DNA of 64,000 bases from Pseudogymnoascus verrucosus (taxonomy: Eukaryota). Below, piece by piece: positions 44,256 to 54,269 of this stretch. The notes below the pieces were generated by a model that worked only from the letters and a program-made list of their open reading frames with translations, was not told the origin of the DNA and searched no databases. The stretch lies in assembly GCA_001662655.1 (NCBI GenBank), contig KV460218.1; one strand, written 5' to 3'. The first letter of the stretch is position 1. Every line of letters begins with the position of its first letter. A program made the position numbers and the translations under genes.

Positions 44256-44387
44256 GGCATTTAATTCAAACAAGGCGACGAGGCAATGGGGGTTTATCAC
44301 GACATTGGTACTTCTCGTCGAGCGGCGATGCCGTGACAGCAGCGGGGAATAAAAAGCGGGGTTCCGGAACCCCCATCAAGCAAGTAG

Positions 44388-44399
44388 ACGGAGAATCCG
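44388..44399. promoter_or_regulatory. Candidate Zn2Cys6 site CGG-N5-CCG (ACGGAGAATCCG)
   Basis: Lies in the divergent dehydratase/SDR promoter and matches sites at 45999, 46031 and 54259. Confidence 0.55.
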
Positions 44400-44494
44400 T
44401 AGCAATTTTATAACATAAATGAGGACAAGTAATACCGACAAAGGTTTTTAGAGACAGCATTATTCAAAAATTACTAATCTCTTGCAAAATCGAG

Positions 44495-45301
44495 ATGTTG
44501 AGCCTTGAAGGAAAGATCGTTCTCATTACAGGCCTAGGCCAAACTCAGCCTGGGGGATGGGGAATCGGCGCTGCGATAGCGGTTCTCCTAGCTAGGCAGG
44601 GAGCCAAGATTTTCGGCGGCAACCGTACCATCGCATCCACAATCTCGACGAAGAAGGCTATCGAGGAGGCAGGGGGAGTTTGCGATATACTGGAGACAGA
44701 TGTGACGTCCTCAAAGTCGGTGGAAGCACTGGTAAAGGCGTGCATGGAAAAGCATGGCCGAATTGATATTCTGGTGAACAACGTTGGCCGTTCAGAGCCT
44801 GGATGCCCAGCAACGATGTCTGAGGAGGTTTGGGACTCGCAGATCGAGATCAATCTCCGGAGCGTATTCTTGACTTGCCATCATGTTTTGCCAATCATGG
44901 AGAAGCAGGGAGCGGGTGCAGTTGTCAGCGTCGCGAGCATTGCGGGTCTGCGGTATATTGGTAAACCTCAAGTCGGGTACTCAGCGACGAAAGCGGCAAT
45001 CATGCAGTTCATGAAGGCGACGGCGGTCATTTACGCGCCGAAGGGAGTGAGGTTGAACACGGTGGTTCCAGGGTTGATGGATACACCATACACCAAAAGC
45101 CTCGTGGGCCGGTATGCGACAGACGGAGGACACGAAGAGTATATGAAGATGAGGAACGCGCAGGTTCCGATGGGGAGCATGGGAGATGCTTGGGATGTCG
45201 CCCACGCAGCATTATTTCTGGTTTCCGACGAGGCGAAGTATATAACCGGGCAGAAGATTGTTGTGGATGGTGGAATCACCTCTTCAACCGGGAGGGCGTA
45301 A
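44495..45301 (+). CDS. Short-chain dehydrogenase/reductase (classical SDR), single exon
   Basis: TGxG...GIG, LVNNVG, YSATK catalytic motif, ITGQKIVVDGG. Confidence 0.93.
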   Translation: MLSLEGKIVLITGLGQTQPGGWGIGAAIAVLLARQGAKIFGGNRTIASTISTKKAIEEAGGVCDILETDVTSSKSVEALVKACMEKHGRIDILVNNVGRSEPGCPATMSEEVWDSQIEINLRSVFLTCHHVLPIMEKQGAGAVVSVASIAGLRYIGKPQVGYSATKAAIMQFMKATAVIYAPKGVRLNTVVPGLMDTPYTKSLVGRYATDGGHEEYMKMRNAQVPMGSMGDAWDVAHAALFLVSDEAKYITGQKIVVDGGITSSTGRA

Positions 45302-45997
45302 AAGCCCGTAAAATGCAGTACAGTACCACAGCAAAAAGCCACGGCGCCTCGTCCAGAGCGCATAGACGATACGACGCGATCCGGTAGCTTGGTTACACCA
45401 ACGGGTCCTGGCTGTGCTGTCGTGCTCTTCTCTTGTGTGAAAGCTGTGGGAGGGGGGTTGTGCTATCAATCAGTCCTACTCCAGCTGAGCTGAGAGGTTG
45501 GGGGAGGATGATTACTACTGAGACGTGGCTGGGTGATAAGAACTGAGGGAGGGATTGTGTAGGACAGACCTCAAGGTTTAGCATAGCGTACAGACACTGT
45601 TTGGTACGTAGGTGGTTTATAGAACTAGGAATGAAATTAGGATTCTCGATTACTGTGAAATTGCGCAGATTGCCGGTTCTACTGGAAGTGCGCGGGTTCT
45701 GAAAAATGAAGCTTAAGGTATTGACAAATTGGGTGTTGAGATATCTCGAAGCTCGATGTGATCACACTTGCGCAGATTGGCGCTAATGGAACCAAATGTG
45801 CGCGGATTCTCCAAAGTGAAGCTAAAATGTGCTAGAGGTGCATATGCTCTTAATCCAATCTATTTTCTATACTATAGACCTTTAGAGAGTGTGATTTATG
45901 ATTGCAATTCAACCCTTTTCCCGTTCATTCAGTAGAAAAACCGCTGATTGTATCTATGGTACAATTCCTGCTTCCAGCTCGCCTCTGTGAAGTTCCC

Positions 45998-46042
45998 ACG
46001 GAAACTCCGCACATCGGTGCGGAGTGGGTGCGGAGTTTCCGT
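45998..46042. promoter_or_regulatory. 15-bp perfect inverted repeat carrying two CGG-N5-CCG sites
   Basis: acggaaactccgcac (45998-46012) and gtgcggagtttccgt (46028-46042), upstream of a TATA (tatataaa near 46112) and the Ldh_2 ATG. Confidence 0.6.
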
Positions 46043-50830: not shown

Positions 50831-51697
50831 TCAAACTCCGGCATCCTCCGCCTGATGCAGGCACCATATCTATCAGCTTCTTTTGCAGACATCCTCTTCT
50901 GCCGACTTTGTAGCCACTGAGCTTGAGGTCTCGGTGTCTGGAGGCTCCCGACGGCATTCGCACTTCGCTCGACACCGAGATACCAGAGGTGTCCAATTAT
51001 ATTCGCCCTGCCTGCCCTGCCATGCCCTGCCCACTTGTTCGGGCGCGACGTTTCGGCTGCGAACCTTCCGAGGCCCGCTTTGATTGGACGAGTTTAAATG
51101 TCAGCCCAGAATTTTCTCTTGGCATTTGCTTTTCAGTTTCCACGATATGGGACTTGGTCCCCGCATAGCCAGCCGTTAGGTCAAACCTGACAATACAGAC
51201 TTTCGGAATACCCGTGAAAACAAAGACTCAACATTTCAAAGGTTTGCCACATTGATTGCACTTATTCCTTGAAATGAATCATGTGATTCAAATTGTTGAT
51301 ATCGTTTAACGAGCAATTTTAATCAACTACCATGAGTGTTGGTGCTTAAGGCATCTCTAATCCTCTTTCTTGATTCTTTGGGTCGTTTTGCCAATCTCGG
51401 GCGTCGGACCCAACACAGACTGCGAGAAAACAGCGTAGCCCGGTAGCACATAGCCGCTGTGCTTTTTGCTTCTGGGCACAGGGTAGGTTACGTCACTTCT
51501 AGAGTAGACGAGGCGTGTGTAGTCTATATAATGCAACAATCACTTCAGACTTCAGATCATCATCCATTAGTTCCTCAACTACAACTACAACTATTACAAT
51601 AACAAATCCAACCTCTTCTCCAACTCCAGCGTCAAACACCAACTCTTCCTGCTTTACACAACAAGCATCAAGCAACATCCAGACTACCACCGCTAGA

Positions 51698-52911
51698 ATG
51701 GACACCATTGTTGTTTTGGGAGCCACAGGCCAGCAGGGAAACTCCGTTGTTAATTCTTTACTTCAGAATGGCAATTGGAAGGTACGAGGCGTCACTCGCA
51801 ATTTGGAAAGCGAACCAGCAAAGAAACTCGCCGCAAAGGTGTGTAGAGAGCTTCCAGAAACTCGTGTATTAGGATGTCAATAATTGATGTTTTCAGGGTG
51901 TCGAAGTTGTGGCAGCTGATGCTAACGACGAATCCTCGCTCGTAAAAGCATTTGCAGTTAGTGTGCCCCCCAACCGAGACAGACCTATACCTTGGCTCCC
52001 GACTAAGTATCTTCAACAGGGCGCATCTGCAGTCTTTTCCTTGACTAACTACTGGTTATGTATTGATACCATCTCTCGCATCTAGCATACTAATGCTGCA
52101 TTAGGGAATCTTTATTCCAACTCGGCCGTGACGGAGCGGGTCTGCAAGAACAGAAGCAACAGACCAACATCGCCAACGCTGCCGCCAAAATCCCAACCTT
52201 GAAGCACTACGTGTTTAGCACCCTTCCGCCGGCTGGCAAGGTCTCTGGAGGGCAACTCAAAGTTCCTCATTTTGACTACAAAGCTGCAGTGGAGGATTAC
52301 ATCAGGGAGACTCTGCCAGAACTAGCAAGCAAGACTACATACTTGTGGGTCGGCTGGTACGCTTCTAACTTGACCGGTTCAAAGCCACTGTTCGATGTAT
52401 GTTCTCTTCATTCTTTACCTTGTTGCTTCTTATACCTTTACCACCGCAGCCTAAGCTGGATTGATAACTAATGATTCTTTCACGACAGCCTGTTTCTAGA
52501 AAATCAATCTGGCTGCAGCCTAGCATCGGAAGTGCCAAACTGCCAATTGCTGGCCAGACTTCTGTAAATGTTGGCATAGCAGTCGAGGCAATTGTTTCTA
52601 ATCCAGAGTTGACTAAAGGCAAGTATGTTCCACTTGTGACCGATTATCTGTCATTCGAGGAAGTGATAAAGGAATGGTCAGCAGTTACCGGGAAGAATGG
52701 TGTTTACAGTGAGGTTAGCGATGTTGTTGCTGAGTCTATCTGGGGAATATATGGTTCTGAGCTAGCATCTCAATTCCGATGGAGCGAGTCTTACCCCAAT
52801 TGGTCTGCTTGCAAGCCGGAAAATGAGGTCGTGTCGCTAGAAAAGTTGGGAATTAGAGAGAAGGTGGTCGGGCTTAAGGCGGCCCTCGAGGCTTTGAAGA
52901 GTGATCTATAA
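51698..52911 (+). CDS. NmrA-like NAD(P)-binding protein
   Basis: IVVLGATGQQGNSVV, VRGVTRN, HFDYKA. Several GT-AG introns. Confidence 0.88.
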
Positions 52912-53494
52912 GGTAGCAGAAACCCTGCTTTGACCTGTTTATAAAAGCATTAGAGCAAATAAACCATGCGAAAGGATATAGTGCAAGTCGAAACTGGCTC
53001 TCTAAGGTTATCTTCCAATTAAAGCAGCATTCATTAAACGCCTATCTCTATATTCTCCATCTGCCACTCATTCAAAGTTTTAAGGAAAGACTCTGTGTTA
53101 GGATGTTGAGGCAGGAGCGAGCCAGTAGTGTAAACGGCGGTTTACTCGGTTCCTCCCTCGGTTCCTTCCCCCTACAAGGTATCTACAAAGCCACAACAAG
53201 CCATAGGCGTACCCCGCAGTCTATAAAAAGACATAACAAAAAGCTAGCGACACTTAATTCGCTTTCTACCGTTAGCCATATAAATACTATCATATCACAT
53301 ACAAATACGCAATCCATATGGAGTCACTATCTCATAGGACGTTCTACATACCATGAAGCCGACCTCGGTCCAGTTTTAACAGCTGGGGCGCCTCCCTGAC
53401 TGAGTAGGTTAGGATTTAACCGCCACCACATTGAAGCGTTGGGATATATCAACAAAGAAGCACATCAATTATTAATTTATTTGAAAACATTCAT

Positions 53495-54039
53495 TCAAAC
53501 CAAAGAACTCAGATCTGTCATATTTTTACCGCGTCTTCTGGGGGTGCCACGAACCCCTTCACGAGCCTATTCCCAATTCCTTGACACATATATTCGTCCT
53601 CGCTGTCAACCTCAAAATCAAATCTAAATAAATCCTCCTTAAATGGAAACATATAAGTACTAGTTACTCTACTTTTGGTTAGCCTTTCCCTTTTTCAAAT
53701 GAAATAGATAATGGCTCACCTATGATGTTCTTTGCTTGCTTGGTACTCCGCTAACGCCTCTCGATCGCGATGGTAGCTAAGGAGGGCAAATTCAAAACCT
53801 TTGCTTCTTTCGATCGGGTCCGTGATTGATGGCCCACCAACTATCAGTCGCCCATCTTGGACGCAGGGAAGTGATTTGAGTGTCTTGAGCTCTGAGACAA
53901 ATAGTGACTTGTGTGCCGCAGAGACATCAGGGCGAAATTTGAAGAGAACTTTAAAGAGACGGTTAGGACGCTGTGGCTCAAACGTAAATGAAAGGAAATG
54001 AGAAACCAGCTTCAGCTTACCAATATGAATAATAGTCAT
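53495..54039 (-). CDS. Stress-responsive A/B barrel (Dabb) protein
   Basis: MTIIHI|VLFKF...SKGFEFAL...YQASKEHH|...FDFEV, two introns. Confidence 0.85.
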
Positions 54040-54257
54040 TTTGAACAATTGAGGGTGACGGTTGGACGGGTTTAGAAGCTGTATATCTAAGAACAGGTGA
54101 TTTAATAAAATAGAATCGAAATCTTAGTAGCAAGAGAAACTAAAAACTAACCCTGAGGAGGTTATTCAACTACCCTCTTATTCATTTCGTTGTTTCCAAG
54201 GGTGAAGCACGTGATGTGCGGATAGAACCGCCACACCGGGAATAGAAATTCTCCTCA

Positions 54258-54269
54258 ACGGAGCCTCCG
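54258..54269. promoter_or_regulatory. Candidate Zn2Cys6 site CGG-N5-CCG (ACGGAGCCTCCG)
   Basis: Lies in the divergent Dabb/TF promoter and matches the consensus CGGAG-NN-TCCG. Confidence 0.55.

Follow-up and report, generated by a model that had tools for sequence, protein, structure and literature searches.

We analyzed in silico a 64,000-bp stretch of contig KV460218.1 of Pseudogymnoascus verrucosus (hereafter the window), in which an inverted CGG repeat occurs in the promoters of a small set of enzyme genes and of a linked Zn2Cys6 transcription factor (TF) gene. An earlier note on this DNA had proposed that sites with a five-nucleotide spacer (CGG-N5-CCG) tie the distant pair formed by the TF gene and a Dabb gene to the enzyme genes, and had taken conservation of these sites in orthologous clusters as a check. 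Our results showed that the link of the sites to the TF holds. The inverted half-sites and their position are kept in homologous clusters, whereas the spacer varies between clusters (N5, N7 or N8) and is uniform within each of them, so that N5 is clade-specific and kept only within clades of the TF. We favor, with moderate confidence, the interpretation that this Ppr1-like family re-spaced its site regulon-wide at least three times (N7 being widespread, N8 occurring once and N5 in two separate groups), with the same half-site and target genes and no matching change in linker length. This cluster-wide spacer switch is what we add to the earlier note.

In the window, the genes for an IlvD/Edd dehydratase (42299..44255, minus strand, ATG at 44255) and a short-chain dehydrogenase/reductase (SDR; 44495..45301, plus strand, ATG at 44495) have a common divergent promoter of 239 bp. 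It carries the predicted TF site CGGAGAATCCG at 44389..44399, 133 bp from the dehydratase ATG and 95 bp from the SDR ATG. Two other predicted sites, CGGAAACTCCG (45999..46009) and CGGAGTTTCCG (46031..46041), lie 200 and 168 bp upstream of an Ldh_2 family oxidoreductase gene (46210..47331, plus strand). The fourth, CGGAGCCTCCG (54259..54269), lies in the 343-bp promoter common to the Dabb gene (stress-responsive A/B barrel; 53518..54039, minus strand, ATG at 54039) and the divergent TF gene (54383..56877, plus strand, ATG at 54383), 219 and 113 bp from their start codons. It is putatively autoregulatory and has counterparts upstream of the TF gene in other clusters. All three cluster promoters of the window hold main sites, and the dehydratase, SDR, Ldh_2 and Dabb genes, the last two being core cluster genes, are the predicted targets. 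We confirmed the four strings of the earlier note at 44389, 45999, 46031 and 54259, and its statement that the strong sites lie near an ATG agrees with the measured 95–219 bp. A weaker CGG-N5-CCG site from the same source, CGGCGATGCCG (44323..44333), lies in the dehydratase/SDR promoter 67 and 161 bp from the two start codons. We consider it a plausible second site because the orthologous promoter of locus L029, the closest relative, likewise carries two N5 sites.

The window contains 25 CGG-N5-CCG matches compared to 8.25 ± 2.6 in shuffled sequences, a number reached in 0 of 100 shuffles, and N5 is the most frequent spacer in the range N0–N15. Seven strand matches to CGGAGNNTCCG, which correspond to six sites, were found against 0.25 in shuffles (0 of 100 as high); all six sites fall between 44389 and 54474, that is, within about 10 kb. 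For CGGANNNTCCG there were 6 matches against 0.68, with 1 shuffle in 100 as high. The genome scan suggested in the earlier note returned 213 strand matches to CGGAGNNTCCG in 30.17 Mb, the window being strongly enriched. From genome frequency, the probability of four sites in 982 bp of promoter is about 1e-10, for a pattern that was picked post hoc.

Scanning metagenomes with an alignment of 40 TF proteins yielded 37 loci, from which 19 were dropped (16 near-duplicates, 80% or more identical to another locus in nucleotide sequence, and 3 without upstream DNA). The 18 non-redundant loci and the window make up 19 clusters, represented by 43 promoters, with at most 400 bp taken per gene and 16,152 bp in total. 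In the 18 loci, several of them on short contigs, Dabb was linked to the TF gene in 15, Ldh_2 in 12, and the dehydratase and SDR in 6 each, with shuffled gene order. Such conserved linkage of enzymes and TF across species is what would be expected of a catabolic cluster with a dedicated regulator. For spacers of 0 to 15 nucleotides, CGG-Nn-CCG was counted 1, 4, 2, 0, 4, 30, 7, 37, 12, 3, 7, 3, 3, 5, 4 and 5 times in the 43 promoters. The peaks at N5 (30), N7 (37) and N8 (12) compare with a next highest count of 7 and with about 2.2 per spacer in shuffled promoters, for which the TF windows differed slightly. Sites with the spacer of their own cluster reached 4.46 per kb in promoters versus 0.27 per kb in the remainder of the same loci (16-fold), which upholds the proposed tie between the TF/Dabb pair and the enzyme genes.

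The flanks, which were not used for site definition, point the same way in all spacer classes, where the half-site is alike: C precedes CGG in 3 of 144 half-sites against a background of 20.5%, and A follows it in 94 of 144 against 27.8%. Inverted CGG half-sites, a spacer fixed within the cluster and promoter enrichment, which characterize a Zn2Cys6 inverted-repeat site, are all seen here. In L029, a 14-bp block around the 45999 site is identical while the promoter is otherwise poorly alignable, and the N5 site CGGGAGTTCCG aligns with the 44389 site. All 19 clusters have a site upstream of the TF gene (three of them with tied spacers), which fits the autoregulation predicted by the earlier note. 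Could all these matches be chance products of CG-rich promoters, selected with a post hoc pattern? The pattern was indeed taken from the window itself, the weak matches at 51204 and 58790 do resemble chance, and wrong-spacer matches in TF first exons exceed their expectation (7 versus 2.4). Nevertheless, independent loci contain the element at a density 16-fold above that of other sequence, its spacers peak sharply at three values only, and its flanks are consistent; the 43-promoter analysis has already largely refuted chance, which we regard as extremely improbable.

By their majority spacer, the window, L029, L035, L043, L051 and L052 are N5 clusters (with L034 as a tie), L020, L026, L033, L036, L037, L040, L041 and L042 are N7 clusters (with L023 and L031 as ties), and L017 and L046 are N8 clusters. 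Only 7 of the 19 have N5 as their majority or tied-majority spacer, the others being N7 or N8. Overall, 72 of 79 sites match the majority of their cluster, whereas permutation gave a mean of 48.2 and a maximum of 58 in 20,000 rounds. When promoters were left out one at a time in the 13 clusters with at least two of them, the spacer predicted from the others was present in 37 of 37 held-out promoters and wrong spacers appeared in 8 of 86 trials. One spacer per cluster in all promoters is what would be expected if TF geometry and targets changed jointly. Alternatively, the TF may bind as monomers, or flexibly, at CGGA half-sites, the spacer differences reflecting shared ancestry and drift with an unchanged protein. 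Zinc-cluster factors of yeast can also act from half-sites without spacing rules (PMC10250231), the spacer is not predicted by linker length, and a few promoters contain off-spacer sites, such as N5 in the N7 cluster L033. But the non-homologous Ldh_2, SDR, Dabb and TF promoters of one cluster had one spacer in 37 of 37 tests, and independent drift would not synchronize them. Drift at half-sites is therefore disfavored, and we judge it very unlikely.

On a TF tree of 47 proteins with 20 labelled rows (L038 standing for L042, and L024 added), the spacer required 3 changes compared to 8.1 after shuffling (0 of 200 as low), and N5 fell in two groups in all 200 bootstrap trees; the tree is unrooted and does not distinguish gain from loss. 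The Ldh_2 tree was less resolved, with similar subclades. It could be argued that some other Zn2Cys6 factor, encoded elsewhere, reads these genuine sites and that the linked TF is just one more target: any ascomycete has many CGG-binding factors, and a Ppr1-like linker would point to N6, not N5. However, the spacer follows the tree of the linked TF, and all three spacers are represented in loci for which the nearest named TF comes from a Helotiales-type fungus (L029 with N5, L033 with N7 and L017 with N8). An unlinked Ldh_2 paralogue in this genome also lacks a site. We thus hold an unlinked factor to be unlikely. That the 54383 TF binds these predicted sites, as the earlier note had put forward, appears highly probable from the enrichment, the linkage, the spacer uniformity and the fit to the TF tree.

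Several observations weigh against this reading, in which the linked TF binds the sites and its geometry changed jointly with them. One leave-one-out success (the L020 Dabb promoter) came from a tie-break, and the single-promoter loci L023, L031 and L034 were tied and labelled by tree clade. Because the clusters are phylogenetically related, related loci share their spacer labels, and the independent evidence amounts to about 3 switches, not 19 samples. Own-spacer sites were found upstream of the transporters beside the clusters in 0 of 6 loci checked. Binding from half-sites, mentioned above, also belongs here, as does the gapless alignment of the TF DNA-binding domain to that of Ppr1, which uses N6, so that structure alone would predict N6. 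In Gal4, Put3 and Ppr1 chimeras, the linker reportedly sets the spacing. Among our clusters, a Cys6-to-Trp distance of 24 residues goes with both N5 (window) and N7 (L041), distances of 21 and 32 with N7, and 23 with N8; we rejected linker length as a predictor of the spacer since 24 residues occur with two spacers. As linker length does not change accordingly, the spacing determinant may instead lie in linker sequence or dimer geometry.

The best structural match of the TF DNA-binding domain is Ppr1 of S. cerevisiae (1PYI, gapless over residues 31–87, E 7e-8, a comparison covering this domain only), and the inverted CGG repeat is common to both. UaY of A. nidulans has a CGG-N6-CCG site, and many TF homologues carry the database label "positive regulator of purine utilization", a likeness assigned by similarity. 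The regulon predicted here differs from the Ppr1/UaY type: its spacer is 5, 7 or 8, not 6 (N6 occurs 7 times in the 43 promoters, versus 30 for N5, 37 for N7 and 12 for N8), and instead of genes for pyrimidine or purine metabolism its linked targets are a dehydratase, an SDR, Ldh_2 and Dabb. Ppr1 needs a 6-bp spacer (PMC10250231); our element would act like the Ppr1/Gal4 inverted repeat (PMC10250231 and PMC6265462), though its spacer sets it apart from a Ppr1-type N6 site. For a shift of the spacer, the closest precedent comes from the homologous Zn2Cys6 factors CLR-2 of N. crassa (CGG-N11-CCG) and ClrB of A. nidulans (CGG-N8-CCG). That shift has two states, a dispersed regulon and cofactor-dependent exceptions (PMC13267753), whereas we find three states on a tree, each uniform in a small linked regulon. 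The Lys14 paralogues of Candida albicans are zinc-cluster relatives which diverged in half-site arrangement (PMC4066398). They took different targets, while here the target genes stay homologous and the spacer changes. Within an incomplete literature coverage, supplements excluded, we found no description of a regulon-wide or three-state spacer switch, no CGG-N5/N7-CCG regulator of this kind and no paper on this cluster or its site.

Two CGGA-N3-TCCG sites overlooked by the earlier note lie in coding exon 1 of the TF gene: CGGAGAGTCCG (54408..54418, codons A-E-S-P), a possible extra autoregulatory site, and CGGACGCTCCG (54464..54474, codons R-T-L-R), which may be a codon coincidence. The L029 TF exon has an N5 site over codons T-D-I-P. 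In total, own-spacer sites number 9, against 1.25 expected from synonymous shuffles, and occur in 6 of the 19 TF first exons (two each in the window, L029 and L017, and others in L046, L043 and L040). We treat them as a lead because wrong spacers also exceed expectation, and a family-wide rule is unsupported for the same reason and since 13 exons have none. That the own-spacer sites of the window's clade and of the N8 clade are coding-sequence autoregulatory sites, switched along with the protein, is a tentative and rather doubtful suggestion.

The weaker N5 strings listed in the earlier note are present at 44323, 51204 and 58790, but only the first, discussed above, is plausible as a site. 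The match CGGAATACCCG (51204..51214) lies 483 bp from the ATG of an NmrA-like gene (51698..52911, plus strand) and lies across an indel breakpoint (51212) at which contigs from two related runs depart from the window sequence (a loose end in X1 and a joint in X2). One X2 contig joins across the NmrA gene, so that one or more close relatives lack this gene here. These two contig features were used, and missing coverage over NmrA in X1 and X3 was not counted alone. Close relatives seem to be polymorphic for the presence or absence of the segment 51213–53283. In L029, an NmrA gene (47% identical) likewise occurs; it lies between Dabb and TF and has no site upstream. We rejected 51204 as an NmrA regulatory site, as it spans the breakpoint and the L029 gene lacks an upstream site; the match is probably due to chance. 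The 58790 match was rejected as a site of the MFS gene, being 1649 bp from its ATG, and the MFS protein is only 26–29% identical to the transporters of other clusters.

A HET-domain ORF (48232..50490, plus strand) lies inside the cluster. It has no N5–N8 site upstream and no match in the 37 homologous fungal loci, and is not part of the regulon. HET and NmrA would be passengers that split the cluster. Between Ldh_2 and HET, a short multi-copy repeat (47510–48160; summed depth 167 versus about 18 for its neighbors in run X2, and up to 16 contigs) may represent a small mobile element associated with the insertion of HET.

The TF (780 aa) combines a Ppr1-like DNA-binding domain with a Fungal_trans domain, and the exon used for the search is identical to a record named as P. 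verrucosus, 780 aa long. In P0001 we found PF00172 and PF04082, with the six-cysteine motif, linker, helix and middle homology region of the family. The search returned 283 relatives; of the 120 listed, those that are named all belong to the ascomycetes. No close paralogues of the TF, dehydratase or SDR were found in this genome, where the TF is single copy. For Ldh_2, there is one 79% identical, intronless paralogue (G000:C8:505776-506849), outside any such cluster and without an N5, N7 or N8 site in 1 kb upstream; motif matches near it (512611 and 515210) fall within coding frames of unrelated genes. This paralogue groups weakly with N7/N8 Helotiales-type and Aspergillus enzymes, and is perhaps the remnant of a second cluster.

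We propose that a homodimer of the 54383 TF would bind D-CGG(A)-N3-(T)CCG-H, with one zinc cluster per CGG, and would activate the divergent dehydratase/SDR pair, Ldh_2 and Dabb, as well as its own gene through the promoter common to Dabb and TF, probably in the presence of a small acid inducer. The dimer geometry and the few targets may then have changed together across homologous clusters. Judging from protein families, the cluster probably serves the catabolism of a sugar acid or hydroxy acid. Oxidation by the SDR might be followed by dehydration to a 2-keto-3-deoxy acid by the IlvD/Edd enzyme and by 2-oxo/2-hydroxy acid redox conversion by Ldh_2.

The dehydratase (Pfam ILVD_EDD_N/C, 2 introns) is of the sugar-acid type: its best NCBIfam is PRK06131 and its best Protein Data Bank (PDB) matches are 8EJ0 and L-arabinonate dehydratase. 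PRK06131 and L-arabinonate dehydratase outscore TIGR00110 (biosynthetic DHAD), and we therefore rejected a role as branched-chain amino acid DHAD (Ilv3/IlvD). Two further IlvD-family genes of the genome are 36% identical to it. The SDR (268 aa, intronless, Pfam adh_short_C2) matches PDB 5JC8 best (E 4e-72), and the Ldh_2 gene (Pfam Ldh_2) has 1 intron; no solved relative of Dabb was found by sequence. The N-terminal part of the dehydratase is 60–65% identical to proteobacterial IlvD/Edd proteins encoded among sugar-acid genes. Bacterial Ldh_2 relatives (44–48% identical) lie among tricarboxylate or hydroxy-acid genes, beside genes for RraA, isocitrate/isopropylmalate dehydrogenase-family proteins and citrate or tricarboxylate transporters. 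As a guide to the substrate, we looked for a bacterial operon and found none: a dehydratase or Ldh_2 gene was present in 0 of 33 bacterial SDR loci, and dehydratase and Ldh_2 together in 0 of 5 plasmid loci. No characterized pathway could be transferred. The transporter beside the L028 cluster scores best with the D-galactonate transporter family, below cut-off.

Other features were noted in passing. Four N7 clusters share a conserved CGGCT(T/C)CCCCG element (L020:8371, L031:4185, L033:8867 and L038:3548), about 580–650 bp upstream of their transporter gene, which may be the site of another regulator. Among P0001–P0008 and P0213–P0225, TF and Ldh_2 proteins of Trichoderma group with those of Pseudogymnoascus and Halenospora (TF 70% identical, branch 100/99) and stand apart from the remaining Sordariomycete homologues, a hint that the cluster may have been transferred horizontally. 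In Aspergillus section Nigri, long gene models join Dabb to TF (P0095 and P0104 by Pfam; P0125, P0129 and P0135 by names and lengths). They are probably annotation fusions of two adjacent same-strand genes, and show that the two genes are adjacent in Aspergillus niger and its relatives too; the A. niger homologue lies at An05g01360. Directly beside the cluster of the window, an intronless P-loop protein is encoded at 41206–41763. It was not seen in the other 37 loci and scores best, at E 2e-28 and thus below cut-off, with PRK08118, a bacterial family called "DNA topology modulation protein". The group at 32117–40677, read from translations, holds a large ORF with LysM-like and chitin-binding repeats that is presumably chitinase-like, a secreted protein whose repeats we take to be LysM, and two small secreted proteins. 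A tannase/feruloyl esterase ORF lies at 12606–14264, with a CGG-N5-CCG match just downstream at 14336.

Few natural series exist for the open question of how a TF can alter its DNA geometry and yet keep its regulon intact. Having a closed set of 3–5 promoters, a regulator linked to them, and a spacer whose three states map on a resolved tree, this cluster offers a natural test of the co-evolution of regulator and site, and it suits direct tests with DNA-binding domains of about 100 residues and linker swaps. It also illustrates that, with the spacer held fixed, a motif derived from one fungus may not work in homologues. The site defines the predicted regulon of a catabolic cluster widespread in Pezizomycotina, and gives a reporter for the search of its inducer.

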